DNA of 64,000 nt from Stellaceae bacterium (GCA_036404275.1 DASXAM010000132.1:3175-67174); one strand, 5' to 3'. Counted from the stretch's first letter, positions 15,643-64,000 are shown. Notes: a model not told the origin generated them from the sequence alone. Numbers and translations: made by a program.

Positions 15643-16857
15643 CTAGACAGGCAGCGCGTCCGCGGGAAAGCGGACGATCGGCACCATCGTTCCAGCCGCC
15701 GCGGCGGCTGCGTGCGGCGGGCGCACGACGAGGCAGTCGGCGGCCGAAAGCGACCGCATCATCGAGCTGTCCTGGACCTCGAACGGGAACACCTCCTCGG
15801 CGCCGTCCGCGGCGTGGGCAAGCCGCGCGCGCAGGTAATCCTGGCGCCGATCGTTTTTCGACAGGTCGGCGCCGAGCCGCGCCGTCTCGTTCGGCCCTAC
15901 CGCCGCCACCAGGCCGCTCATGCGGTCGAGCGCCGGCTTGAGGAACAGGAGCGCGCAGACAAAGGTCGAGACCGGATTGCCAGGCAGGCCCAGCATCGGC
16001 GTCCCTCGGTATCTGCCGACCATCAAGGGCTTCCCCGGCCGCATTGCGATTTGCCAGAAATCGAGCTCGAACCCGTCTTCGGCGAGCGCTTCGCGCACCA
16101 AATCATGCTCGCCGACCGAGGCGCCGCCGGTGGTCACCAACAAATCGACCCCGGCGGTGGCGGCAGCCATCCGGCGCAGCGCCGTCGAATCGTCGGGCGC
16201 GTTGCCGACCGAAACCGCGACCCCGCCGCAGGCCGTAACAAATGCGACCAGCGCAAGGCTGTTCGAGCTGACGATCTGGTGCGGGCCAATCGGGTCGCCC
16301 GGCATGACGATCTCGTCGCCGGTCGACAGCACACCGATCCGCGGCCGACGATGGACCATCAGCCACGGCCGGTTCATCGCCGCCAAAAGGCCGATATCAC
16401 GCGCCGCGAGCCGCCGGCCGGCATGCAGCAGCACATCGCCTTCAGCGAAATCGAGGCCCTCGTGACGAACATATCGGCCACGCGGCGCGGCTTCGCGGAT
16501 CTGGACCCGGTCGCCATCCCGCTCGGCATCCTCCTGGATCACCACCGTGTCGGTGCCGGCCGGCATCGGCGCGCCGGTAAAGATGCGTGCGGCTTCGCCC
16601 GGTCCGACCCGGCCGCCAAACCCGGCCCCGGCCGGCACCTCGGCGACGATGCGCAAGGTTGTCGGGATTTGGCGCAGATCGTCGGCCTGCACGGCATAGC
16701 CGTCCATCGCCGAGGCGGCGAAGGGCGGCTGGGTGCGGCGGGCGGCGACATCCTCGGCGAGCACCCGGCCGAGCGCGTCGGCGAGCGAGACCTGCTCGGG
16801 CGGCAGGATATCGACATGGGCCAGCAGACGCGCGCGGGCTTCCTCAACCGAAATCAC
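15643..16857 (-). CDS. moeA: Molybdopterin molybdotransferase MoeA
   Basis: [11 protein letters not shown]...SAMDGYAV... pattern. GTG 16857 is preceded by GGGAGG and overlaps the upstream stop (GTGA). Confidence 0.9.
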
Positions 16858-18119
16858 GGCTTCGCCTCCCAATTTCCTGACTTACCTCCTGATTTCTTCA
16901 GCAGTCGAAGATCGGTTACAACCATGCCGCGATCGATCGCCTTGCACATGTCGTAGATTGTCAGCGCCGCCACCGAAGCCGCTGTCAACGCCTCAATTTC
17001 GACACCCGTGCGGCCGCGCAAACGGCAGGTGGCGGTGATCTCGACCGCGGTCTTTTCTGGCAAACAGGCGAGCTCGAGCTCGACTGAGGTCAATGCCAGC
17101 GGGTGGCAGAGCGGGATCAGCTCGGCGGTGCGCTTAGCCGCCATGATGCCGGCGAGGCGCGCTACCGCCAGCACGTCGCCCTTGGCGACATTGCCCGAAC
17201 GAATGCGTTCGAGAGTCTCGGGGCGCATCACAACACGCGCACCGGCGACGGCCTCTCGATACGTCTCGTCCTTGGCCGAAACATCGACCATATGGGCGCG
17301 GCCTTCGGCGTCGAGATGGGTCAGATCGGGCAGCCGCAGCAGGCGCCGGGTCGCGGCGGCGACATCGTTTTCGCGCATCAACGTCTCGCCGACGAGAAAA
17401 CAACGTGCGCCGGCGGCGGCCAGGCGGTCGAGATCGTCCGGGCTTCGGATACCGCTTTCGGCGACAACCAGCCGATCGCCGGGCACCCGCGCCGCCAGCT
17501 CTTCCGTCGTGTGAAGATCGACCGCCAAGGTTTTGAGATTACGGTTGTTAATGCCGATGAGCCGGGTCTCGAGCGCCACGGCGCGATCGAGCTCGGCGGC
17601 GTCGTGGACTTCGGTCAAAACATCGAGTCCGAGCTCGGTGGCGGCGACGGCGAGCTCGCGCGCTTCCGGGTCCGACAATGCGGCCATGATCAGCAGCACG
17701 CAATCTGCCCCAAGGTCGCGGCTTTCGAGGATCTGGTAGGGGTCGAGAATAAAGTCCTTGCGCAGCACAGGCAGCGTGCAGGCGGTGCGGGCGGCGCGCA
17801 GATCGTCGCCGCTGCCCTGGAAGAACGGGGTGTCGGTCAGCACCGAAAGACAGGCCGCACCGCCCGCCAGATAGGCCTGCGCCAATGCCGGAGGGTCGAA
17901 ATCGGGACGGATCAGCCCGGCGCTCGGCGACGCTTTCTTAATCTCGGCGATTAGACCGTAGCGCCCCTCGCCGAGCCGGCGCTCGAGCGCCGCCGCAAAC
18001 GGCCGCACCGCCGATGCCGCGGCAAGACGCGCCAGCAGCGCCGCCTCGGAGACGACCGCTTTCGCTTGCGCGACATGAGCGCGCTTTTCCATGCAGATGT
18101 GGGTCAGCACATCGTTCAT
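16854..18119 (-). CDS. trpC: Fused indole-3-glycerol-phosphate synthase (TrpC) and cyclic pyranopterin monophosphate synthase (MoaC)
   Basis: One uninterrupted 421-aa frame. The N-terminal part (...[14 protein letters not shown]...LSVLTD...LRKDF...) is TrpC. The C-terminal part ([21 protein letters not shown]...IPLCHPL...TIYDMCKA) is MoaC. Confidence 0.85.
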
Positions 18120-35820: not shown

Positions 35821-37176
35821 ATGACGCGCGCGGACGACGAGGGGCCCAACGGCGCGGGCCGCGGCGGCTTGCGCCGGCGGGCGGCGACGATGGCGGCCTT
35901 CGCGCTCTATTCCCTGCGCCGCTTCAACGCCGACGGCTGTTTTGCCGCCTCGGGCGCGCTGAGCTATACGACGCTGGTGTCGCTGGTGCCGCTGGCCGCA
36001 ATCGCGCTCGGCTCATTGTCGGCCTTCCCGATTTTCGCCAAGGTGCACGACCAGCTCCTGGCGCTGGTGTTCCGCAATTTCGTGCCGTCGATCGGCGAGC
36101 AGGCGGCCTATTGGTTTAGCGCCTTCACCAACTCCGCGGCGCAGACGACGGCGATCGGCGTCATCGGCATTGCCGCCACCGGGGTGCTACTGCTGGTGAC
36201 GGTCGAGGACCAGCTCAATCTGATCTGGCGGGTGACCTCGGCGCGGCCCTGGGGGCAGCGCGTGCTCGCTTATTGGACCTTGATCACACTCGGGCCGCTC
36301 TTGGTCGGGATCAGCCTGTCGCTGTCGACCTATTTCGAGATCGCCGCGAGCCGCGCCGGCTTTGGCCAGCAGGCGGCGCAGTGGATCGCCAGCGGCTGGC
36401 TGCACGGGTTGGCGCGGGCGGTGCCGGCGCTGCTCGAATTTCTCGCGCTGAACCTGCTCTATTGGCTCATTCCGAATTGCGCGGTGCGGTGGCGCGACGG
36501 CTGCGTCGGCGCGCTGATCGCCACGGTCGCGATCGAAATCCTGAAGGTCGGGTTCACCGCCTATATCGGCGCCATGTCCTGGTACCAGACCGTCTACGGC
36601 GCGCTCGCGGCGATCCCGATCTTTCTGTTGTGGATGTATATTTCGTGGATGGCGGTGCTGCTCGGCGCCGTGGTCGCGGCAGCCTTGCCGCATTGGCGCA
36701 TCGATGAGCGCCTTGGCAAGAGGTCGCCCGGCGGCATCCATCTCGGGCTCAGCCTCGCGCTGATTGCGGCACTCGCACGCGCCCAGCAGCATGGCCGGAC
36801 AGTCACGACGGTGGCGCTCGCCGTCGATCTCGGAGTGGCGACGACGGTCATCGACGAGCACGTCAAGCCGCTGGTCGAAGCCGGTTTTGTGGCGCATACC
36901 CAGGGCGGCAATTGGGTGCTCGCCTGGGACCCGAAGGCCGCCACCCTCGGTGACCTCTATCAGGCATTGCACATGCCGTTTGCCGGCGCCTGGACCGGCG
37001 ATCGGATCGCGGCGCCGTGGCAGCGCCAAGTGGCGCCGGCGCTGGCGCGGATCGCCGATGCCGAGGCCGCGGCGATGCAATTGGCGCTCGCCGAGCTGAT
37101 CGGCGAAAGCGCGGCCCCGATGCCGGCGCTGCGGCGCAGCCGGCACCATGCCGGCGAGAAGATTGGCTCACGCTGA
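35821..37176 (+). CDS. YihY/BrkB family membrane protein with a C-terminal soluble extension
   Basis: ...FNADGCFAASGALSYTTLVSLVPL... YihY core of about 290 aa, followed by a tail of about 150 aa. Confidence 0.8.
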   Translation: MTRADDEGPNGAGRGGLRRRAATMAAFALYSLRRFNADGCFAASGALSYTTLVSLVPLAAIALGSLSAFPIFAKVHDQLLALVFRNFVPSIGEQAAYWFSAFTNSAAQTTAIGVIGIAATGVLLLVTVEDQLNLIWRVTSARPWGQRVLAYWTLITLGPLLVGISLSLSTYFEIAASRAGFGQQAAQWIASGWLHGLARAVPALLEFLALNLLYWLIPNCAVRWRDGCVGALIATVAIEILKVGFTAYIGAMSWYQTVYGALAAIPIFLLWMYISWMAVLLGAVVAAALPHWRIDERLGKRSPGGIHLGLSLALIAALARAQQHGRTVTTVALAVDLGVATTVIDEHVKPLVEAGFVAHTQGGNWVLAWDPKAATLGDLYQALHMPFAGAWTGDRIAAPWQRQVAPALARIADAEAAAMQLALAELIGESAAPMPALRRSRHHAGEKIGSR

Positions 37177-53559: not shown

Positions 53560-54234
53560 TCATTCGTCGGTCGAGGCGGCGAGGATCAGGCTCAATTGGC
53601 ACAAGGGCCGGCCGGTTTCCGCGGCCCATGCGTTGAAATGCGTCTGGACCGCGGCGCGGTCGGCGCGGTTTTTTGGCGGGGCGGCGATCGCACCCCAGTG
53701 CTTCAGCGCGCCGACTACCGCAGGGGTCAGGATGAAGGTGTCCTTGCCGACCATGCGCAAAAAGGTCGGGCCGGAATTGCCGCCCATCTGGTTGAACCGT
53801 TTCGCCAGCGCCTCCCACAGCCCGGTGATGTCGGTCGCGGGCCAATCGGCGAGCCACGCGCCAAACCCGCCATGCTCCTCGGCGATAGCGAGCATCGCCG
53901 CCGCATTGTCGCGCACCGATTTCAATTTGCCCCAATGGCGGATGAGCCGCTTGTCGGCGAGCAGTGCTTCGAGCGCCTCGTCCGGCATCGCCCGCACCCG
54001 GCGCGGCTCGAAACCCTCGAACACCTCCTCGAAGGCCGGCCATTTGGCATCGACGAGGCTGTGCTTGAGCCCGGCGCGGAATATCCGCAGCGACATCTGC
54101 GACAGATAACGGTTGTCGCCGAGCGCGCGCAGCTCGTCGGAGGTGCGTGACTGCGGCAGCCGCGCCTCGAGCGCCGCAGCCCCGTGCCGCGCCTGCGCCG
54201 CTTCGAGGATCGGGCCGAACGGGAGCGCCGGCAT
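53560..54234 (-). CDS. DNA-3-methyladenine glycosylase I (Tag)-like HhH protein
   Basis: ...RIFRAGLKHSLVDAKWPAFEEVFEGFEPRRVRAM.DEALEALLADKRLIRHWGKLKSVRDNA... aligns by eye with the Tag core. The ATG shares one base with the upstream stop (TGATG). Confidence 0.65.
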   Translation of the reverse strand: MPALPFGPILEAAQARHGAAALEARLPQSRTSDELRALGDNRYLSQMSLRIFRAGLKHSLVDAKWPAFEEVFEGFEPRRVRAMPDEALEALLADKRLIRHWGKLKSVRDNAAAMLAIAEEHGGFGAWLADWPATDITGLWEALAKRFNQMGGNSGPTFLRMVGKDTFILTPAVVGALKHWGAIAAPPKNRADRAAVQTHFNAWAAETGRPLCQLSLILAASTDE

Positions 54235-55187
54235 CAGCCGCTCCCCGCCTTGAGCCGCGGGATGATCTCGCGGGCGATGATCTCGACCTGCGCGGGCTCG
54301 TAGCGATAGGGGATGAAGATCAGCTTTTGCACACCGGCGGCGAGCTGGGCGCGCAATTGCGCGACGCATTCATCGGCCGTGCCGATCACCGCTGAATCCT
54401 TGGTCGATTGGCTCCAGGCGGCGTAATCCCATTCCTGGCCGAGCCATTCCATCATCCCCGGCTCGACCGCCGCGCGCGACGCGCCGACGCGGATCGCCAG
54501 CTGGTTTGCATTGAGCAGAGCGGCCGGGTCCTTTCCCGCTTCTTGTGCAAAACCGCGGACTTTGGCCCAGGATTGGGTAAAGCCTTCCGGCGTGTAGAAA
54601 TAGGTGAGCCAGCCGCCGTTCAGCGCCGCGCGCTGCAATACCCGGTCGACATAACCGCCGATCAAGATCGTCGGCAGACGCGCGGGCTTGGGCGCCATGT
54701 TCGAGCCGCGCATGACATGCGGCGGGTATTCGCCATTGACCTGGTCCTCGGTCCACAACCGGCGCAGAATTTCGAGGTTGCGTTCCATGATCCGACCGCG
54801 CCGGTCGAACGGCACGCCGACCGCATCGAACTCGCGCTTGTACCAGCCCGAGGCCATGCCGAGGAGCAGACGGCCGCCGGCGATCAACTCCAGGCTCGCC
54901 AATTCCTTGGCCAAGACCACCGGATTGCGCAACGGCAGCACCAGGACGCCGGTGCCGAGCTTGATCCGGTTCGTGCGTGCCGCTACCGCGGCGAGGAGCG
55001 TCAACGGCTCGATGATCGGAAACGGCGGATCGACGCCGAGCAGAATGTGGTCCCACACCCAGACCGAATCGAACCCCAGCGCCTCGGCCTTGACCGCGTA
55101 ATCGATCAAGGTCCGCGGGTCGGGCACCTCCGGCCAGGTCGTAAAATTGCGCATCGCCAAGCCGAAGGTATTGGTGAAGGCTGTCAT
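54234..55187 (-). CDS. LLM-class flavin- or F420-dependent oxidoreductase
   Basis: ...ALGFDSVWVWDHIL...IKLGTGVLVLPLRNPVVLAKELASL... luciferase-like pattern. Confidence 0.85.
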   Translation of the reverse strand: MTAFTNTFGLAMRNFTTWPEVPDPRTLIDYAVKAEALGFDSVWVWDHILLGVDPPFPIIEPLTLLAAVAARTNRIKLGTGVLVLPLRNPVVLAKELASLELIAGGRLLLGMASGWYKREFDAVGVPFDRRGRIMERNLEILRRLWTEDQVNGEYPPHVMRGSNMAPKPARLPTILIGGYVDRVLQRAALNGGWLTYFYTPEGFTQSWAKVRGFAQEAGKDPAALLNANQLAIRVGASRAAVEPGMMEWLGQEWDYAAWSQSTKDSAVIGTADECVAQLRAQLAAGVQKLIFIPYRYEPAQVEIIAREIIPRLKAGSG

Positions 55188-55200
55188 CTGGGCGCGCTCG

Positions 55201-55974
55201 TCAGGCGGTATAGACCCGGTCGGGGTCGAGACGGCGAAGCACCGCAAGCTCGTGCTCGCTCGGCGGGTCGGTGGGGCGGAGGCCGGGTGCGGCGGTCAGC
55301 GCGAAGCCGGTATTGGCCTCTATCTCCTCGATCGTGACGCCGGGGTGCAGGGCCAGTACCGTCATCCGCTTTGACGCCTCGTCGAAACCCAGAAGGGCGA
55401 GGTCGGTCACCACGCGGAACATGCCGCCCGCGGTGAGCCCGGAAGTGTGCCGGCTGTCGCCGCCGGAGAGAAAGCCCGGGCTCGTCACAAAATCGACCCG
55501 TTCGACAAAGCGCCGCTTCTCGTGCTTCATCGCCACGATCATCCGGGTCAGGCTGGCGATGTCGTTGCCGCCGCCGGTGCCGGGCAGCCGGGTCGTCGGG
55601 CGCTGCGGGCTGCCGATAAACGAGCTGTTCAGATTGCCATGCTGGTCGATCTGGGCGCCGCCCATAAAGCCGACATCGACATAGCCGCGCTGCAGCAGCA
55701 ACAGCACATCGGTGCTGGACAGCACCATGTTGGCGCGCCGGCAGCAGCGCTGCTCGTTGGTCGAAGGCGGCAGTTTGCCGGGCTCGATATGGGGGCCGAT
55801 CGTGCCGCCTTCGAACAGGATCGTCAGGCCGGGCGCGTGCAGCCGCTGCGCCAGAGTTGCCGCCAAAAGCGGGATGCCGACGCCGGCGAAGACGATCTCG
55901 CCATCGCGCAGCAGGCGTGCGCTCATCACCGCCAGCAGCTCGCCGGCGGAGTAGGGGAGGGCATCAGTCGTCAT
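55201..55974 (-). CDS. CoA-transferase subunit B (glutaconate / 3-oxoacid CoA-transferase-like)
   Basis: ...FAGVGIPLLAATLAQ...GGAQIDQHGNLNSS...GTGGGNDIAS... Confidence 0.85.
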   Translation of the reverse strand: MTTDALPYSAGELLAVMSARLLRDGEIVFAGVGIPLLAATLAQRLHAPGLTILFEGGTIGPHIEPGKLPPSTNEQRCCRRANMVLSSTDVLLLLQRGYVDVGFMGGAQIDQHGNLNSSFIGSPQRPTTRLPGTGGGNDIASLTRMIVAMKHEKRRFVERVDFVTSPGFLSGGDSRHTSGLTAGGMFRVVTDLALLGFDEASKRMTVLALHPGVTIEEIEANTGFALTAAPGLRPTDPPSEHELAVLRRLDPDRVYTA

Positions 55975-56917
55975 GGATGCTTTGCCCCCGACGGGCGGCG
56001 TCGAGCAATTCGGCGAGGCTGAGCCGGTCGAGGTATTCGGTCCAGGATCGGGGCTCGTAGAAATATTTGTCGAGGTATTCTCGCATGGCGGCTTCGGGGT
56101 CGTGCCGCAGCGAGGCGGCGTAGCGGTCGAGATGCGCGAACATCGGCTCGTAGAGGCCGTAGCATTCGTGCGGGGCGGCGCCGAACGGCGCCTCGACCAC
56201 CGCGTCCACCGCGAAAAAAGGGATTTTCGTCTGGTCGGGCGTGCGGCGGATCTGGTCGTTCGAGACGATCCGCTCGGCGCTGAGGATTACCCGGTTTGCC
56301 GCCATCGCCAGATCGAGATCCATAAACGGCAGCCCATCGATCTGGGCGTTGCCGTAGGCGTCGCAGCGCTGGACATGGATCAGCGCCACATCGGGGTTGA
56401 GCGCCGGCACCAGCGCCAGCTTTTCGCCGGTAAACGGGCAGTCGATCACGCGCGCGTCGGGGAGCTGTGCCAACACGTCCGAACCCAGCATCGAGCGCAT
56501 CGGTAAAAACGGCACGCCCATCGCACCGGCGCGAAAGCGCAGCCCCATCGCCAGATGGCTCCATTCCTCGAAGCGGGCGCGGCCGGTCTCGGTATAGGCG
56601 CGCATGATCCGCGACACGCCCCAGACGATCCCCAGGCTGAACCAGCTCGTCACCAGGTGGCGGCTGGCCCCGGCAGCAAACAGCAATTCGCCCTCGTTCG
56701 AGCTGATGCCGCGGGCGCAGACGAGATCGCGGCGGCCGGCACGGATCAGCGCCCAGACCAGCGCCAAGGGTGTGCGCGAGAGCGTGCTGCCGCCGATCCC
56801 GACCATGGCGCCGTCGGGCACCAGCGCCGCCGCCTCGGCGAGCGACATCACCTTCTCGCGCAGGCTCCGGTCGCGCTCTCGCGTGCGCCGGCAGAGCTCG
56901 TCATAGGCGAGAGTCAC
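55964..56917 (-). CDS. CoA-transferase subunit A (GctA-like)
   Basis: ...[21 protein letters not shown]...[13 protein letters not shown]...; it overlaps subunit B by 11 nt. Confidence 0.85.
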
Positions 56918-58410
56918 ACAGCGTCTCCAAGGCCGGCCGCGGCGTTGAACTCGACGATTAGCGCGTCGAGCGCCGGCAGGCTTTCCCGCAATTCGGCCCA
57001 GAAAGCCGGCGAGCGCCGCCGCTCGAAGGCGTCGAGCGAGACGCCGCGCTGCTCGACCCAGGTATAATAGCCGAGGTTGAAGATGCGCGAGCGCTCGTGC
57101 CGGGTCAATTCGAGCACATCGTTGTCGGCGGCGCCCAAAAGATGCTGGCCGAAGATCTCGCCGGCGCCGACCATGTCGAGCCCGTCCGGGTAATGCGCGG
57201 CAAGATATTTGCGGCGCTCGCTTTCATAGAGTGCGGCGCCGTCGGTGGCGAGGGTCAGGACGGCTTCGTCTTCGCCGAGATCGAGCCGCTTGGCCACCTT
57301 GATCGCGGCGACGACATTGGCGATCCCGGAGAGCCCGAGAAACCGCAAATCGGCGGCGAGCGCCGGGTCGATATGCCGGCGGCCGGTCAGATAGGCGCGG
57401 CCGGTATCGCTGTTGAACAACAGGTCGAGCGCCGCGGCGCTGCGGTCGGAGACGGCGACGACGAGGTCGGTGTTCATCACGTTGTGAATGAGCGGCACAT
57501 GCTTGTCGCCGATCCCCTGGATGCCGTGCTCGCCAAACCCGTTCCGCAGCAAGGTCGCGCATTCGCTGGCTTCGACAGCGACGATCGGTGTGCCGTGCCT
57601 TTCCTTCAAATAGTCGCCCGCCGCCAATGTCCCGGCAGAACCCGAGGCGGCGACAAAGGCGGCTGGCTGCAGGCCGGGGCGGCTTGCCCGCACGGCCTCG
57701 AACACGGCCGCCATGGCGTGGCCGCTGACCGCCCAATGGGCGAGGTAATTGCCGAAATCGGCGAACTGGTTGACGATCACATTCGCGGGATCGCGGCCGA
57801 GCTCATCGCATTTGTCGTAGATTTCCTTGACGTTGCTTTCCGAGCCCGGGGTACGGATGATGTCCTCGGGCTGCGCCGCCCAGTGGGCGAGCCACGTAAA
57901 GCGCTCGGCGCTCATCCCTTCCGGCAACACCGCGATGCCGCGGCAGCCGAGAATGCGCGACAGCGCTAGCCCGCCGCGGCAGAAATTGCCGGTCGAAGGC
58001 CAAACCGCGCATTGCCGTTCGGGCTCGAACCGGCCGGTCACCAGATGCGGCGCGAGACAGCCATAAGCCGCCAGCACCTTGTGCGCGCCGATCAGCGGGA
58101 AGAGCGCGGCGAGTGCGACAATGATCGGCGCCGGCACGCCGGTCAGCTGCGGCGGCAGCACCAGATGCACCGGAACCGCAGCAAGATCGCGGCGCGCGCG
58201 GTCGTTGTACCAGTGCATGCGAAAAAGATTGGCCGGACGCGGCTCGTCCGCGCCGATGCCGCCGAGCGACGCGGCGATACTTTTCGGGATGCGCCGCGGC
58301 TCGGCGAGCTCGGCGAAGAGTGGCAACCGCACCCGGTTTTGGGCGAGCCATGCTGCCGCACGATCGCGCGCAGTCCGATCCAGGACGCTCGTCGCGACCG
58401 CCTCATCCAT
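56914..58410 (-). CDS. PLP-dependent enzyme of the cysteine-synthase/Trp-synthase-beta (PALP) fold, with an N-terminal extension of about 100 aa
   Basis: ...GAHKVLAAY... (candidate PLP-Lys), ...[11 protein letters not shown]... glycine loop, ...[10 protein letters not shown]...; the stop overlaps the CoA-transferase A start (ATGA). Confidence 0.75.
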
Positions 58411-58476
58411 GGCCGCGTAGCCGCGAGGCGAAGCCGGCAGCCTCCGCCACCGGAACCCGCGCCAAATCGAGCGCGG

Positions 58477-59208
58477 CTATTTTTCGCCCAGCTGGGCCCC
58501 GTCGAGACCGCAGCGGACGCATTTGGCGAGCGTGAAGGTCACCGTCCCGGAATCGTCCGGGGCCTCGAACTTGACCGGCACGCCGTGGCTGTCGATCCAC
58601 ACGGTGTAGCGGTCGTGGCCGTCGATCTCGTATTTGCGGGTCGATACCGAGCTGCCGTCGATCGTCACCGCGGTCGGCTTGCCGCCGCTGACGCGCACCG
58701 GCTCGACCTTGCCGTTGTCCGGTCGCATCATCGCGCTCGAGCCGACGAAGTTGGCCGACCATGGGTTGGCCGGGTGAACCGTAGCGGGCGCGCTAAAGGT
58801 GCCCAACGGCGAGGTGATGACAAAGCTGTTGCCGCGCGCGACACCCTTGACCTCTTTCGGCCCGGACCCTTTGTCGGTCACGCCGTCGAACGAAACGAGG
58901 CGATTGCCTTCCCAACGTTCGGTGCGCCGCGCATCTTCGCGATGCATCGTAACGCCGAGCATCTTGACCTCGAAATGCGCGCTAGTCATGACCATCGTGC
59001 CGGTGCCGATCGGCTCGATCGTGTTGATGTAGGTGCCGATATTGCCGAAGACCGAGTGGGTCACACGGTAGATCAGCTGTGTCGGCGCTCCTGCTGCGAC
59101 AGCCGGGCCCATGCCGGCGAGGAGGGCAAGCCCGGCGATGGCGACGATGGGCAGAACCGCCGCCAGGCACGGAATTCGCCGCCGTGAACCCAGGTAATTT
59201 TTGGACAT
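58477..59208 (-). CDS. Secreted hypothetical protein
   Basis: GGGGGGA RBS. MSKNYLGSRRRIPCLAAVLPIVAIAGLALLAGMGPAVAA signal peptide. Beta-rich mature part; no family recognised with confidence. Confidence 0.6.
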   Translation of the reverse strand: MSKNYLGSRRRIPCLAAVLPIVAIAGLALLAGMGPAVAAGAPTQLIYRVTHSVFGNIGTYINTIEPIGTGTMVMTSAHFEVKMLGVTMHREDARRTERWEGNRLVSFDGVTDKGSGPKEVKGVARGNSFVITSPLGTFSAPATVHPANPWSANFVGSSAMMRPDNGKVEPVRVSGGKPTAVTIDGSSVSTRKYEIDGHDRYTVWIDSHGVPVKFEAPDDSGTVTFTLAKCVRCGLDGAQLGEK

Positions 59209-59299
59209 GATGTCCCCCCAACCAAAGCGGACAGCCGCAGTGCCAATCCGTGGATCCGAGCGGGCAAACAATCCACGAAATTGACGCGCTAGCACACGA

Positions 59300-59327
59300 A
59301 GCATACTCCCTGTCGCCGCCCGGTCAA
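59300..59327 (-). promoter_or_regulatory. Possible sigma-70 promoter TTGACC-N16-TATGCT
   Basis: Read on the minus strand, in the 168-nt gap between the GrdB-like gene and the secreted-protein gene. Confidence 0.3.
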
Positions 59328-59376
59328 AGCAAATATCGTCCAGGCGGGTTTCGACATCGGCGGCGGCGCGGGCCGA

Positions 59377-60306
59377 TCATTCAGGTTTGGCACGGATTTC
59401 TCTGGCGATCTCCTTTTGCTGATCGAATTCCTGTCGCCGGCGCTGCACTTCTTCCGGCGACAACCGGTCGATGTTCGAGTAGTCGAGCTTCCACGCCGGA
59501 TCGGTGCTCCAGCGCAGCGGCGACTGCACGGTCGTGCGCGGCGCCGGCGCCGCTTCCAGGAGGCGCAGCGCCAGATCGAGGGTCACGGCCTGCGAGTCGG
59601 GGTCGTGCGGACGGCCGGCCGCATTGCCGAGCGGGAAATCACTGAACAGAAAGCGCGGAACGCCGCAATGTTCGACGATGTCCTTGGCGCAGCCCATGAC
59701 CACCGTCGCGATGCCGTTTGCTTCCAAATGCCGGGCGGCCAGGCTCACGGTCTGGTGGCACACCGGTCAGTTGGCAACGAGGATCGCGGCCTCGGCGGCA
59801 TCTTCGCGGCACCGCGCCAACAGCTCCGGGCAATCTCGCTCGATCGTGGCGCGCTGGCTGCGATCGGTCGGCGCACCATGGAACCGCGGCGCTATCGGGC
59901 CTATCCGGCCTGCGACCGCCGCGCGCCGCAATTGGGGTAGCGGAAACCAGGTATTCCGGTCTTCCGCCGTGGTATGCGCCCGGTCATAGGCCAGGTGCGA
60001 GATGCGCAGATCGTGATCCTCGCCGCTATCGCCCGAATAGACCCGGTAGAATTTGGCGGCGGCGTTGTAGGCCGCACCCGGACCCTGATCGCCTTTGTCC
60101 GGCTGATAGGGGGCGGCGGTCGTTATCAGCGCGACCCGTGCCTCTGCTAGCGGCTTCGCCAAGGGCCGGAACGGCACCTCGGCATAATGCGCCCAGCGAT
60201 ATGGCGCGCCGTAGCCGAGCGCCGCGTAGTATTCGGCAATCCGCCGCATATAGGGGATCGGCAGGTCGTAATCGGCGGCAAACCCCGGAATTTCTCGCTC
60301 GCTCAT
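59377..60306 (-). CDS. GrdB/PrdB-like reductase family protein with an in-frame TGA (candidate selenocysteine at 59767-59769)
   Basis: ATG 60306 is preceded by AGGAG. Track ORFs 59767..60615 and 59377..59763 share one frame and are split only by the TGA. Read-through gives ...AAILVAN-U-PVCHQTVSLAARHLEANGIATVVMG... Confidence 0.55.
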
Positions 60307-60319
60307 CGCCGCTCTCCTC

Positions 60320-61288
60320 TCAGTTCTCGAAGCCGAAGAGGCGCTGGGCATTGTGGTTGAGGATTTTGTCGAGGTCGGCCGGTGCGAGGCCGAGCCGCGA
60401 TATGTAGGCGAAGGTCTCCTTGTAGGCTTCGTAATCCTGCAATACCGGATAGTCGCTGCCGGTGACGAGATGGTCGGCGCCAAACGCTTCGAGCGCGCAG
60501 GTGAAAGCCGCCTTCGAGCCGTAGCATACGGTGTCGTAATAGAATTTTTTGGCGGAGACCGACGGCGCCTCGGCCAGGTTCGGATGACCGCTCGGGCTCT
60601 GGCCTTGCTTGTCAAGCCGGTTCAGCAGCATCGGGATCGGGCCGCCGAGATGCGGCACGATAAATTTGATGTTCGGATAGCGATGCGGGATTTGCCTGGC
60701 GATCACGTGCAGCACAAAGCTCGCGTCCTCGAGCGAGGTACCGACCGAGGCGGTGTAGCGGTAGCCGGTGATAAACGGCGAGCAGATGCCGGTGCCGGCA
60801 GGATGGACGAAGAGCACTGCGCCTCGTCGGTTCATCTCGGCATAGATCGGCTCGAACTCGGTTTCGGCGACCGACCGGTTGAGGCAGCTGATGTTCATGT
60901 TGACGCCGACGCAGCCGAGCTGGTCGAAGCCGCGCTCCATCTCCCTCAACGCCGCGTCGATATGCGGCAATGGCAGCATGACGTAGGAGGCGATGCGCTT
61001 CGGGTAGCGGTGGGCGAGGTCGGCATAGCCGTCGTTCAGCATCTGCACCGCTTTTACGCACTCCGCCTCGTCCGGCAGGTAGGGTGGATGGTTTGGCGAC
61101 AACACCTGCTTTTCGACACCGGCTGCATCCATCAGCTCGAACCGGCCCTGGATGTCCTCCGGCGAATCCGAGAACGGGTGCCGCGCCATGCCGCGCTTGA
61201 CCGGTAGGTGCACCGGCGAGGCGAAGCGGTCGCCCATAAACTCGCTGAAATTTCGTGGGGTGTAATGCGCATGAACATCGCAGATCAT
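60320..61288 (-). CDS. Amidohydrolase-2 family protein (ACMSD-like decarboxylase/hydratase)
   Basis: MICDVHAHYTP... metal-binding HxH start, ...FVHPAG..., ...VPHLGG..., ...TGSDYP... The rest of track ORF 60320..62464 is an artefact. Confidence 0.85.
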   Translation of the reverse strand: MICDVHAHYTPRNFSEFMGDRFASPVHLPVKRGMARHPFSDSPEDIQGRFELMDAAGVEKQVLSPNHPPYLPDEAECVKAVQMLNDGYADLAHRYPKRIASYVMLPLPHIDAALREMERGFDQLGCVGVNMNISCLNRSVAETEFEPIYAEMNRRGAVLFVHPAGTGICSPFITGYRYTASVGTSLEDASFVLHVIARQIPHRYPNIKFIVPHLGGPIPMLLNRLDKQGQSPSGHPNLAEAPSVSAKKFYYDTVCYGSKAAFTCALEAFGADHLVTGSDYPVLQDYEAYKETFAYISRLGLAPADLDKILNHNAQRLFGFEN

Positions 61289-61423
61289 CGGCTGGACTTT
61301 CCCGAAACGAGGTGGATCGTTGAGCGTAAGCCGCACGGTCGCAATCCGGCAAGCCGGGAGGATTCGATGGACCTGGCTCGGCCCCGCGGCTAGGCTTACA
61401 CGTCCGTAAGCAAGGAGGAATCG

Positions 61424-62344
61424 ATGCGCGCTGCAACGGCATTGCCGAAGGGTTGCGTCAGAACATTGCCGACCGCGGGGCTCGCGGTCGTAGCGCTGCT
61501 GGCGGGTTCGCCGGCGCCGCGCGCCGATACCATTTTGTGGGCCAATGACGGTCGCGGCTCGCCCGGCCCGACATTGGACGAGTGGAACATCAACGAAGCG
61601 GCCGGCACCGGCACCTTGATCAATTCGTTCGCGGCGCCGAACCCGGTGGCGCAGCGCGGCGGCCCCGGTGGGATCGCCATCCTCGGGACGAGCATCTACT
61701 ACGGGGTCAGCAATTCCGGATCGGTGTTTCTGACCAATCCCGCCGGCGCCGATCTCGGTGTAGCCTTTGACACGGGTCTGCCCGGCATCAGCGCGATCAC
61801 CTCCGACGGCACATTTCTCTATATCGCAGCGACTGGCGACAGCTCGCTGACCGAGAAGGTGTATCAGTACACGCTCGGTGGCAACCTGGTGAACACGCTC
61901 ACTCTGGTTCCGACGGCCGGTGGGCCGTTTCTGGTCGGACGGACCGGGCTCGAAATTGTCGGCGGTAATTTCGTTGCCAATCAAGGCAACGACCAAGGCC
62001 CCTACAACAAGTTCGACTCGGCCGGAAATCTGGTCACGACGGAGTTCCTGCAGCAGACGGACGATTTCGGCTTTAGCGGCGTCGCCTTCGACGGCGCATT
62101 TTATTATGTAGCCGATGTCGAAGACCAACCGTCGATTTTTCGGGCCTTCGACGCAGCAGGGAACCTGCTGAAGGAGATTGCGCTGACCGGGTGCCCCGGA
62201 CCCAACCAGCAATGCGACTTTGCCGATCTGGCGGTCGAGCATGTGGTGCCGGAGCCGACGACCCTCGGACTCGTCGTTCCTTTTCTGCTCGCGGCGGGCC
62301 TGACGTGGCGCACCCGGCGCGGCGGCACCTTCAGAACAGCGTGA
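61424..62344 (+). CDS. PEP-CTERM sorting-domain protein with a beta-propeller-like repeat region
   Basis: AAGGAGGAA RBS and a signal peptide. C-terminal VPEPTTLGLVVPFLLAAGLTWRTRR. Confidence 0.8.
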   Translation: MRAATALPKGCVRTLPTAGLAVVALLAGSPAPRADTILWANDGRGSPGPTLDEWNINEAAGTGTLINSFAAPNPVAQRGGPGGIAILGTSIYYGVSNSGSVFLTNPAGADLGVAFDTGLPGISAITSDGTFLYIAATGDSSLTEKVYQYTLGGNLVNTLTLVPTAGGPFLVGRTGLEIVGGNFVANQGNDQGPYNKFDSAGNLVTTEFLQQTDDFGFSGVAFDGAFYYVADVEDQPSIFRAFDAAGNLLKEIALTGCPGPNQQCDFADLAVEHVVPEPTTLGLVVPFLLAAGLTWRTRRGGTFRTA

Positions 62345-63413
62345 GCTGATCGCCCCTCTGCGGCGGCGGGCGAAAGCGGGTCGTGTCGAGCGGATGGGTC
62401 TTGCGCGGGCTGAAACCGAGCCGGCGGCAGGCGCGGTCGAACCTGAGCCGCAGCATCTCGGCATAAGGACCGCTGCCGGTCATCCGTTTCGACCAGGCCG
62501 AGTCGTAAAGCCTTCCGCCATGCGCTTGTGCCACGAGCGAGAGCACATGCGCCGCCTTGTCCGGGAAATGCGCTTCGAGCCATTCGCGGAACAGCGCCTT
62601 CAATTCGAGCGGCAGGCGCAGCAGCGTATAGCCCGCCGATGACGCGCCGGCGTCGCGCGCCCGCTCCAGGATCGCTTCCATCTCGCTGTCGTTGAGGGCC
62701 GGGATCATCGGTGCGCTCAATACGCCGGCTGGGACGCCGGCGGCGGCGAGCGCGGCGATCGTTTCGAGCCGGCGCTCCGGGGTGGCGGCGCGCGGCTCCA
62801 TGACCCGCGCCAGACCGCGGTCGAGCGTCGTCACCGACACCGTGACGATCGCCAATCGCTCTTTCGCCATATCGGTGAGGATGTCGAGGTCGCGCCGGAT
62901 CAGCGCCGATTTGGTCACGATCGTGACCGGGTGCCGGAAATCGCGCAGCACTTCGAGGATGGCGCGGGTGACGCCGAGCCGCCGCTCGACCGGCTGATAG
63001 GGATCGGTGTTGCTGCCCAGCGCCAAGGGGCGCGCGGTGTAGCCCCTTTTGCGCAATTCGGCCGCGAGCAGCGCCGCCGCCTGCGGCTTGTAGAACAGCC
63101 GGCTCTCGAAATCGAGGCCCGGCGACAGCCCGAGATAGGCGTGGGACGGGCGCGCATAGCAATAAATGCAGCCATGCTCGCAACCGCGATAGGGGTTGAT
63201 CGAGCGGTCGAAGCCGATATCGGGCGAGTCGTTGCGGGCGATGATGGTACGCGTCGCATCGACACCGAGCGTCGTCTTCAGTGGCAGCGGCTCGCGATCA
63301 CCGCTCCCCCAGCCGTCGTCGAACGGCACCCGCTTTTCGTTCTCGAAGCGGCCGCTGCCGTTGCTCGCCGCCCCGCGTCCCTTGCGCTCTTGCGCCATGC
63401 CCGGCATATCCAT
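62331..63413 (-). CDS. PA0069-family radical SAM protein (SplB-like)
   Basis: ...NPYRGCEHGCIYCYARP... CX3/4CX2C cluster. The start is among ATG 63413, 63407 and 63398. Confidence 0.85.
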   Translation of the reverse strand: MDMPGMAQERKGRGAASNGSGRFENEKRVPFDDGWGSGDREPLPLKTTLGVDATRTIIARNDSPDIGFDRSINPYRGCEHGCIYCYARPSHAYLGLSPGLDFESRLFYKPQAAALLAAELRKRGYTARPLALGSNTDPYQPVERRLGVTRAILEVLRDFRHPVTIVTKSALIRRDLDILTDMAKERLAIVTVSVTTLDRGLARVMEPRAATPERRLETIAALAAAGVPAGVLSAPMIPALNDSEMEAILERARDAGASSAGYTLLRLPLELKALFREWLEAHFPDKAAHVLSLVAQAHGGRLYDSAWSKRMTGSGPYAEMLRLRFDRACRRLGFSPRKTHPLDTTRFRPPPQRGDQLTLF

Positions 63414-63434
63414 GCGGGATATCTTGCCGCGACA

Positions 63435-64000
63435 ATGCGAACTTTTCAAGAACAAATTTTATCGGCCGTAATTCCGACGCTGAACGCGGCTGCGAGCCTG
63501 CCGCAAACCTTGGCGATAATCGCCGGGTCGCCGATCGTGCGCGAAATCATCATCGTCGATGGCGGCTCGTCCGACCAAACCCGCGCGATGGCGCAAGGGC
63601 CCGGCATCCGGGTCATCGTCGCGGCACGCGGTCGGGGCAATCAGCTGGCGGCCGGGGCAAAGGCGGCGGTGGGCGAATGGCTGCTGTTTCTGCACGCCGA
63701 TTGCCGGCTCGAACCCGATTGGGAAGACGTGGTCGCCGACTTCGTCGCGGCTGACGGCGCATCGGGTCGGGCCGGATATTTCGACCTTGCGCTCGACGAC
63801 ACGGCGCCGGCGGCGCGCCGGCTCGAACGGCTCGTTGCCTGGCGCTGCCGTGTCTTGGTCCTGCCTTATGGCGATCAGGGGTTGCTGATCTCGCGCGCTC
63901 TTTATGACGCGGTCGGCGGGTTTGCTCCGATCCCGCTGATGGAGGATGTCGATCTCGCCCGTCGGCTCGGCCGCCGCCGGCTCGCCCCGATCGGCGCGCG
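63435..64000 (+). CDS. Family-2 glycosyltransferase, 3' partial
   Basis: Frame not in the track because it is open to the window end. ATG 63435: MRTFQEQILSAVIPTLNAAASL...IIIVDGGSSDQT...LFLHADC... Confidence 0.75.
   Translation, partial: MRTFQEQILSAVIPTLNAAASLPQTLAIIAGSPIVREIIIVDGGSSDQTRAMAQGPGIRVIVAARGRGNQLAAGAKAAVGEWLLFLHADCRLEPDWEDVVADFVAADGASGRAGYFDLALDDTAPAARRLERLVAWRCRVLVLPYGDQGLLISRALYDAVGGFAPIPLMEDVDLARRLGRRRLAPIGA

Follow-up and report, generated by a model that had tools for sequence, protein, structure and literature searches.

PrdB of C. difficile forms an active enzyme together with the pyruvoyl proprotein PrdA, and the selenocysteine of PrdB (Sec151) attacks the alpha-carbon of D-proline while this substrate is bound to the pyruvoyl group of PrdA. 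Replacement of the residue by cysteine (U151C) yields an inactive protein, and the enzyme is re-reduced by PrdC (PMC11229817). Proteins assigned to the same family have also been catalogued in surveys of ocean bacteria. A "Proline reductase (PrdB)" family with a UxxC motif, represented by 42 genes, ranked third in abundance among the selenoprotein families of the Sargasso Sea (Zhang et al. 2005, PMC1088965), and the PrdB family was among the top families in the GOS data, where 235 selenoproteins and 110 Cys homologues were found in 38 samples (Zhang and Gladyshev 2008, PMC2398784). Supplementary file 3 of the GOS study gives, under "#Proline reductase", the sequence JCVI_READ_189537, which reads ...DVVLLVPN-U-PVCHQTVSLVARHLEAN... 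(PMC2398784).

The locus analyzed here lies on the minus strand of a 64,000-nucleotide (64 kb) stretch of DNA from a Stellaceae bacterium, called the window below. A pair of adjacent reading frames in this window had been read, from the sequence alone, as halves of a single selenoprotein gene. Comparative analysis supports that reading: the locus very probably contains one 309-residue selenoprotein gene, from a stand-alone PrdB-like branch, in which the UGA at 59769..59767 would be recoded to selenocysteine.

A probable single gene with an in-frame TGA

The features of the gene are as follows.

59377..60306, minus strand: predicted selenoprotein gene, complete; 309 residues with Sec at 180, plus a terminal TGA stop (translation)
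59767..59769, minus strand: UGA codon predicted to be read as Sec180, opening the U-P-V-C motif (Cys alignment and TGA recurrence)
59758..59760, minus strand: codon of Cys183, presumed resolving Cys of the U-x-x-C pair (invariant in a 51-sequence alignment)
60314..60318, minus strand: AGGAG, Shine-Dalgarno-like, 7 nt before the ATG (direct sequence reading)

Translation confirmed that the two open reading frames, 60306..59770 and 59766..59380, share one frame and are separated solely by the TGA at 59769..59767. The start codon is the ATG at 60306..60304, from which 179 sense codons lead to this TGA; beyond it the unchanged frame contains another 129 sense codons and ends with the TGA at 59379..59377. 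Read-through would yield ...AAILVAN-U-PVCHQTVSLAARHLEANG..., with ILVAN-U-PVCHQTVSLAAR as the peptide that spans the UGA. The TGA falls three residues ahead of a cysteine, as the sequence-only reading had it; this is Cys183, which is invariant in every TGA form and Cys form compared. The description of the start region was likewise correct in all respects, with AGGAG ahead of ATG 60306 and the ATG 13 nt past the stop codon of an amidohydrolase gene (TGA at 60322..60320). The downstream half was said to have no Shine-Dalgarno sequence of its own and only a GTG as a candidate start, and the sequence agrees: the GTG at 59763..59761 is its sole start-like codon, and direct reading of the sequence revealed no Shine-Dalgarno sequence ahead of it. 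The GTG begins 3 nt past the TGA and not 6 nt as first given, a trivial discrepancy.

The in-frame TGA is not an assembly error, since the same codon is carried by three independently assembled JGI metagenome contigs (L001-L003) that are 99.85-99.9% identical to the window; TGC was not found in its place in any of the three. Within the gene, the assemblies differ by two SNPs (60202 and 59875), both at third codon positions and both synonymous by reading of the sequence, and the TGA allele is fixed in 3-4 samples. Standard gene callers had been expected to miss the gene, and the JGI annotation of all three contigs indeed splits it into genes of 179 aa and 128 aa. TGA serves as the true stop codon of both the PrdB-like gene and the upstream amidohydrolase gene, so that any recoding is local and does not reflect a variant genetic code. 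When the window was searched for a second selenoprotein gene, no other in-frame TGA looked credible in terms of coding flanks and proximity to a Cys.

Relationship to the PrdB and GrdB families

Profile searches were run with Cys substituted for the in-frame stop. The best match was to the NCBIfam PrdB model TIGR04483 (E=6e-22), in which residues 46-260 of the protein align with positions 20-228 of the 238 in the profile; the score of 78.2 bits compares with an equivalog cut-off of 300. The score with Pfam PF07355 was 21.9 bits against a cut-off of 22, that with TIGR01918 was 27.4 bits against 65.45, and the GrdF, GrdH and GrdB models matched more weakly than TIGR04483. Many homologues that are 75-80% identical to the window protein carry a precomputed PF07355 match. 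Because all of these scores fall under the curated cut-offs, the protein is by sequence no PrdB or GrdB equivalog but a homologue from a divergent branch within the GrdB/PrdB superfamily. The sequence-only assignment to the PrdB/GrdB family therefore stands at the level of the superfamily. A subunit of D-proline or glycine reductase in the strict sense was considered and rejected, on the grounds that the scores lie far under the cut-offs and that no PrdA or GrdE gene is nearby.

When 5.8 billion proteins were searched, thousands matched, and the best 120 of these are full-length proteins of about 312 aa that are 73-83% identical to the window protein. All 120 have Cys at the position of the TGA, within the motif LV[PA]N-C-PVCHQ, and none ends there. 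This protein sample is biased, since gene callers truncate TGA forms, and the recurrence of TGA was therefore examined at the DNA level.

The pattern GTNSCNAAYTGACCNGTNTGYCAYCA (V-[PA]-N-TGA-P-V-C-H-Q) was scanned over one genome per GTDB species. At least 119 loci were recovered, against about 0.5 matches expected by chance according to our own estimate, and among the matches listed at least 117 species genomes contain family members with TGA at the Sec codon. The frame stays open for 126-136 codons past the TGA in nearly all of these species loci, and the joined orthologues among the matches listed are 56-82% identical to the window protein over the full length. The hosts among these matches are mostly Alphaproteobacteria MAGs (Stellaceae, Rhodospirillaceae, Acetobacteraceae, Hyphomicrobiaceae), with many Gammaproteobacteria (Pseudomonadales, the K189A clade, the HTCC2089 group) and some Rokubacteria/Methylomirabilota, Chloroflexi and Entotheonella; those closest to the window among the matches listed, about 82% identical, come from MAGs of Alphaproteobacteria and Stellaceae. 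In an unbiased scan of metagenomes, with TGA, TGC or TGT (TGH) permitted at the same codon, 117 contigs yielded 19 TGA, 76 TGC and 22 TGT, so roughly one family member in six uses TGA. Genomes and metagenomes together provide more than 130 independent sequences in which TGA occupies the Sec codon.

Purifying selection on the codons downstream of the TGA

Signs of decay in the downstream half would have pointed to a pseudogene, and none were found. All 129 codons are intact, and comparison of the window with 12 TGA-form orthologues gave dN/dS values of 0.11-0.22 over these codons, next to 0.07-0.20 over the 179 upstream codons. Amino-acid identity to the same 12 orthologues is 0.76-0.84 downstream versus 0.74-0.80 upstream. 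The low dN/dS past the TGA reflects purifying selection and argues that the downstream half is translated.

A hairpin specific to the TGA forms

The RNA just past the UGA contains the following elements.

59728..59769, minus strand: UGA and SECIS-like element, 42 nt (covariance model R1, 65.8 bits)
59745..59749, minus strand: apical loop CGUGA (G22 at 59748 and U23 at 59747 invariant in the alignment)
59743..59743, minus strand: third base of the Ser188 codon, AGC in the window (AGU in most TGA forms)

In the numbering of the hairpin, nt 1 is the U of the UGA. The upper helix is formed by nt 15-20 and nt 26-31 (CCAGAC/GUCUGG), and lower pairs join nt 11 with 35 and nt 12 with 34. The consensus of 135 TGA forms is 5'-UGYCAYCAGAC-CGUGA-GUCUGRNNGCN, with a 5-nt apical loop that reads CGUGA in 117 of the 135 and GGUCA in another 13, and in which G22-U23 is invariant. 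The CCAG-N9-CUGG pairing potential that had been pointed out by eye is thus real and constitutes the core of a conserved hairpin.

Codon usage provides a clear signature of this element. Over codons +5 to +9 (CAG ACC GTG AGY CTG), synonymous sites are near-invariant in the TGA forms, with counts among the 135 of 132 for CAG, 113 for ACC, 118 for GTG, 112 for AGT against 21 for AGC, and 115 for CTG against 17 for TTG. AGT is dominant here although G+C-rich genomes seldom use it. In the 98 Cys forms, the same peptide is encoded with free use of codons (ACC/ACG/AGC, GTC/GTG/ATC, AGC/GCG, CTG/CTC). Covariation is equally specific. Pair 15-31, which joins the third base of the His codon with the first base of the codon ten residues past the Sec, is C-G in 95 TGA forms, U-A in 33, of the G-U type in 4 and mismatched in 2; the association is strong (Fisher p=1.5e-24, uncorrected for phylogeny), and none was detected between the same positions in the Cys forms (p=0.75). 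RNAalifold recovered the helix from the TGA forms and no structure from the Cys forms. Among 95 distinct TGA-form sequences, 96.1% of cells are paired, versus 22-34% after a shift of the partners by 1-3 columns, and double-sided changes occur in 30 cells compared to 10.9 +/- 2.1 in shuffles. These comparisons show a conserved and covarying SECIS-like hairpin that is specific to the TGA forms.

A covariance model, R1, was built from 95 TGA forms with window-identical sequences excluded. It scored 65.8 bits (E=2e-13) at 59769..59728, the only match better than E=1 in the 64 kb. The window lies at the median of the TGA forms (50-69.6 bits, median about 65) and above every Cys form (10-56.5 bits, median about 31); much of the R1 score comes from sequence conservation that is also imposed by protein coding, as the 56.5 bits of the best Cys forms illustrate. 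An Rfam scan of 59300-60400 at E<=10 returned chance matches only, with no SECIS family among them.

The hairpin of the window is a weakened version of the consensus. Its Ser188 codon is AGC, as in 21 of the 135 TGA forms, rather than the AGU found in 112, which results in an A.C mismatch at pair 19-27; in addition, GCC at codon +10 precludes the 14-32 pair. The consensus helix has 6+2 bp, whereas that of the window amounts in effect to 4+1+2 bp; the core hairpin energies are -12.3 and -5.5 kcal/mol, respectively. Folding the RNA past the UGA, a check that had been proposed at the outset, gave a mixed outcome: a single-sequence fold of the 65 nt past the UGA (MFE -18.3 kcal/mol) was no more stable than shuffled sequences (z=+0.79), and the hairpin emerged by comparison. 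Since the single-sequence fold is uninformative alone, the element is revealed only by comparative analysis. The AGC variant evidently supports read-through, because diverged orthologues that carry it (L026, L029, L036 and L053; dS 0.58-0.74 from the window) maintain a downstream dN/dS of 0.16-0.22 versus the window.

Probable selenocysteine insertion and the alternatives

The proposal of a selenocysteine in a U-x-x-C motif is supported by the alignment of the UGA with Cys, the recurrence of TGA, the preservation of the downstream frame under purifying selection and the hairpin specific to TGA forms, all of them shown by comparison of sequences. From these we infer the recruitment of SelB, the actual incorporation of selenium and the catalytic chemistry. 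When a ribosome reaches the UGA, the mRNA just downstream would be folded as a short hairpin (nt 11-35, with loop CGUGA and G22-U23). By analogy with characterized bacterial SECIS elements, this hairpin would recruit the complex of SelB, GTP and Sec-tRNA(Sec), Sec would be inserted at the UGA, and translation would run 129 codons further. The product would bear Sec180-Pro-Val-Cys183 on a loop that joins a beta-strand to the next helix, and homology with PrdB suggests that Sec180 and Cys183 most likely act as a selenol/thiol redox pair. The selenol could then attack an activated carbon of the substrate, after which Cys183 would resolve the adduct to give a selenenylsulfide, to be re-reduced by an external dithiol.

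The machinery for this process was sought near the gene. ARAGORN found no tRNA-Sec in the 64-kb window, none was found in 60 TGA-form loci, and a Pfam scan of 30 window ORFs (64 kb) found no SelA, SelB or SelD. A weak additional test, tblastn with SelA and SelD of E. coli as queries, likewise gave no match in the window or at any of the loci.

A recent pseudogene, derived by a TGC-to-TGA mutation or left behind when the lineage lost the Sec trait, would make a 179-residue product and retain a downstream half that had not yet decayed. The weakened hairpin and the lack of Sec machinery seen within the 64-kb window would fit such a history, and decay does occur in the family: four TGA-form loci (L059, L091, L126 and L166) are frameshifted just past the hairpin. 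We nonetheless consider this explanation improbable; the chief doubt about the Sec reading concerns a very recent loss of the trait in this lineage. The window has the full set of synonymous codons specific to TGA forms and not the codons of Cys forms, and a chance TGC-to-TGA change in a Cys-form gene would not bring these codons along. The 129 downstream codons are intact and better conserved than the upstream half, the TGA allele is fixed in the samples mentioned above, and the AGC version of the hairpin is shared by 21 TGA forms, including some from diverged species with purifying selection downstream.

The gene callers' output corresponds precisely to a different model, in which a 179-residue protein ends at the TGA and a 128-residue protein re-initiates at the GTG 3 nt further on. 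That GTG is indeed present at 59763..59761, but no Shine-Dalgarno sequence precedes it, and 33 of the 135 TGA forms have GTC, GTT or GTA after the Pro codon and hence no start codon, so the downstream half cannot generally initiate its own translation. The break would also fall at an invariant catalytic Cys of a single-domain protein, at a residue that, in the predicted model, links a strand to a helix within a single fold, and all Cys forms are single polypeptides. Two separate genes are accordingly very unlikely. Least credible of all is a sequencing or assembly error that conceals a TGC, or a genome-wide reassignment of UGA. Such explanations have some prior plausibility for metagenome-derived sequence and nothing more; the former is opposed by the identical TGA in three independent assemblies, and the latter is ruled out by the use of TGA to terminate both the predicted selenoprotein gene and the upstream amidohydrolase gene. 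Recoding of the UGA to Sec within a single gene is thus the reading adopted below.

Gene neighborhood and possible function

The predicted selenoprotein gene is surrounded by the following genes.

60320..61288, minus strand: Amidohydro_2 gene, upstream (Pfam PF04909, E=7e-33; the JGI gene call agrees)
58477-59304, minus strand: DUF6134 gene, downstream (Pfam)
56914-58410, minus strand: PLP-dependent enzyme gene (Pfam)
55964-56917, minus strand: CoA-transferase subunit A gene (Pfam)
55201-55974, minus strand: CoA-transferase subunit B gene (Pfam)
54234-55247, minus strand: luciferase-like monooxygenase gene (Pfam); the downstream block spans 54234..59304

The operon order in the window is Amidohydro_2, PrdB-like, DUF6134, PLP enzyme, CoA-transferase A and B (family I subunits) and luciferase-like monooxygenase, and the Amidohydro_2 gene is probably co-transcribed with the predicted selenoprotein gene. 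The downstream gene context is conserved only in part at other loci. An Amidohydro_2 neighbor is found at only 5 of 235 loci, and context therefore yields no firm functional assignment. The commonest neighbor, next to Sec and Cys forms alike, is a family III CoA-transferase located 13-18 nt downstream in 33 of 233 loci, followed by DUF6134, a TPP enzyme, a SnoaL-like protein, a sulfatase, an enoyl-CoA hydratase and TauD. No PrdA/GrdE-type partner, and no PrdC or PrdH, was found among the window neighbors, the 30 scanned ORFs or the 14 commonest neighbor clusters of the 233 loci, 8 representatives of which were scanned with Pfam.

Structural evidence comes from an AlphaFold model (pLDDT 76, pTM 0.82) of a Cys homologue, P0005, that is 82% identical to the window protein. 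The C/U-P-V-C motif lies between the strand 174-178 and the helix 184-197 of this model, and this predicted location is the classic position of a redox dyad. Searches of the PDB by sequence and by profile gave no match, and neither did Foldseek with the P0005 model at E<=1e-3, so the fold provided no functional lead.

The failure to find a PrdA partner makes D-proline improbable as the substrate, which is probably some other compound. We suggest with low confidence that, instead of being a D-proline reductase, the protein is a selenol/thiol reductase whose substrate is a small activated compound, possibly a CoA thioester. A more specific version, possible but doubtful, is that the family comprises PrdA-independent reductases of aerobic bacteria that act on CoA-activated small organic acids and are subunits of neither proline nor glycine reductase. 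This idea derives from the missing PrdA/GrdE partner taken together with the recurrent tight linkage to CoA-transferase genes (33 of 233 loci, and the operon of the window). Mechanistically, a thioester carbonyl would replace the pyruvoyl-imine as the activator for selenol/thiol attack, leading to reductive C-X cleavage. If true, the proposal would reopen the function of a highly abundant environmental selenoprotein.

Consequences for annotation

In practical terms, the annotation should join the 179-aa and 128-aa ORFs as a single selenoprotein gene and record a translation exception at 59769..59767. Well over a hundred MAG species representatives call for the same treatment. The family-specific SECIS consensus, UGA-N7-UGYCAYCAGACCGUGAGUCUGR..., separates TGA forms from Cys forms and could be used in re-annotation of the family. 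Besides marine bacteria, the family is also common in soil-type Alphaproteobacteria, Rokubacteria and Chloroflexi. There is otherwise little new biology in this finding, as the Sargasso Sea and GOS surveys had already revealed PrdB-like proteins of aerobic Proteobacteria in which Sec and Cys are interchangeable.

Comparison with known systems

Clostridial PrdB and the window protein are homologous over nearly the whole PrdB domain and share the U-x-x-C motif. By coordinate arithmetic on the HMM match, Sec180 would correspond to about position 148-154 of the TIGR04483 profile, near U151 of C. difficile PrdB. By analogy, the window protein may share the chemistry of selenol attack and thiol resolution. 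Unlike clostridial PrdB, it extends further by about 45 residues at the N-terminus and about 50 at the C-terminus, and no prdA, prdC, prdH or other prd genes lie near its gene. The hosts of its family are aerobic Proteobacteria and not Stickland fermenters, and Cys occupies the Sec position in 84% of family members, whereas the U151C form of C. difficile PrdB is inactive. Homology with GrdB, GrdF and GrdH is more distant and involves the C-terminal half of those proteins (profile positions ~208-423 of 435, E=1e-10 to 1e-4). The predicted Sec of the window protein lies in a UxxC context as it does in these proteins, but the window protein is about half the length of GrdB and is not accompanied by grdA, grdC, grdD or grdE genes.

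The hairpin resembles SECIS elements of the E. coli fdhF type in being located within the coding region, directly 3' of the UGA. Counted from the UGA, the loop has G-U at positions 22-23, reminiscent of G23/U24 of E. coli fdhF, the nucleotides that SelB contacts. The small apical loop with a conserved G also matches a feature of bacterial SECIS elements described in PMC1088965. The window hairpin departs from known bacterial SECIS elements in its family-specific sequence, which has no Rfam match, and in its short helix.

The closest parallel is provided by the marine PrdB family. Over 198 aa without gaps, JCVI_READ_189537 and the window protein share 61% identity; the U of the GOS sequence aligns with residue 180, and the string PVCHQ occurs 86 times in the GOS supplementary file. 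The marine and window proteins belong to the same orthologous family and share the position of the Sec, and in both sets Sec forms occur together with Cys forms (GOS, 235 Sec and 110 Cys; metagenome scan reported here, 19 TGA and 98 Cys). They differ in that the window gene belongs to an apparently soil-type alphaproteobacterial lineage with 66% G+C, in that the TGA forms closest to it among the matches listed are MAG sequences and not marine reads, and in that its SECIS-like hairpin is the minority AGC variant. The sequence-only reading had regarded a Sec-containing member of the family in an aerobic alphaproteobacterium as unusual; such members proved to be widespread, and had been published in 2005 and 2008 (PMC1088965, PMC2398784). 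Catalogs of 2005-2008 from aerobic ocean bacteria already included a family with Sec at exactly this site, and the window gene is almost certainly a real, mis-annotated selenoprotein gene that adds a further case to that known family.

Sec and Cys forms of the PrdB-like genes

Some of the PrdB-like genes that carry TGC or TGT at the selenocysteine (Sec) codon, the Cys forms, reach 53-56 bits with the SECIS covariance model, near the scores of the TGA forms. The high-scoring elements lie at these positions of three comparison loci:

L170, 461-502: Cys-form element
L206, 11444-11485: Cys-form element
L182, 13000-13041: Cys-form element

These three genes look like recent Sec-to-Cys conversions in which the hairpin has been retained.

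The TGA forms are themselves not all intact, since at four loci (L059, L091, L126 and L166) the first 30-40 nt or so after the TGA contain an indel or frameshift. These disrupted loci represent either decaying copies or assembly errors. A further TGA-form gene is carried by a contig (L110, CAYZKM010000349.1) whose bin is labelled "uncultured Bifidobacterium sp.", and this contig is probably mis-binned because the PrdB-like family is otherwise proteobacterial in its distribution.

Genes flanking the PrdB-like genes

Across the 233 loci, the commonest neighbour of the PrdB-like genes is a family III CoA-transferase (PF02515), which is found with Sec and Cys forms alike and which, at 33 of these loci, follows the PrdB-like gene directly and in the same orientation. 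The gap between the two genes is 13 nt at one of the comparison loci (L024). The family III CoA-transferase is possibly a functional partner of the PrdB-like protein.

Three features lie upstream of the PrdB-like gene in the window:

60320-61288 (-): amidohydrolase gene, 322 codons
61424-62344 (+): gene for a 306-aa product
62331-63455 and beyond (-): radical-SAM, glycosyltransferase family 2 and DUF2064 genes; also at L243, 1-3046

A 714-codon ORF that is also listed there (60320-62464, minus strand) is an open-frame artefact, the true amidohydrolase being the shorter gene. A Pfam scan of the 306-aa gene gave no match. Just upstream of the operon, the radical-SAM gene adjoins the glycosyltransferase family 2 and DUF2064 genes, and together these form a small conserved cluster.

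Domain combinations elsewhere in the window

Two other ORFs in the window each join two domains:

16854-18119 (-): 421 codons; indole-3-glycerol-phosphate synthase domain (TrpC), residues 5-260; MoaC domain, residues 277-412
35821-37176 (+): BrkB/YihY-type membrane domain, residues 37-292; C-terminal Rrf2-type transcription-regulator domain, residues 315-420

No stop codon intervenes between the TrpC and MoaC domains, and this ORF is either a trpC-moaC fusion or the product of a stop codon lost between two normally adjacent genes. The pairing of BrkB/YihY and Rrf2 domains within a single ORF is an unusual domain combination.
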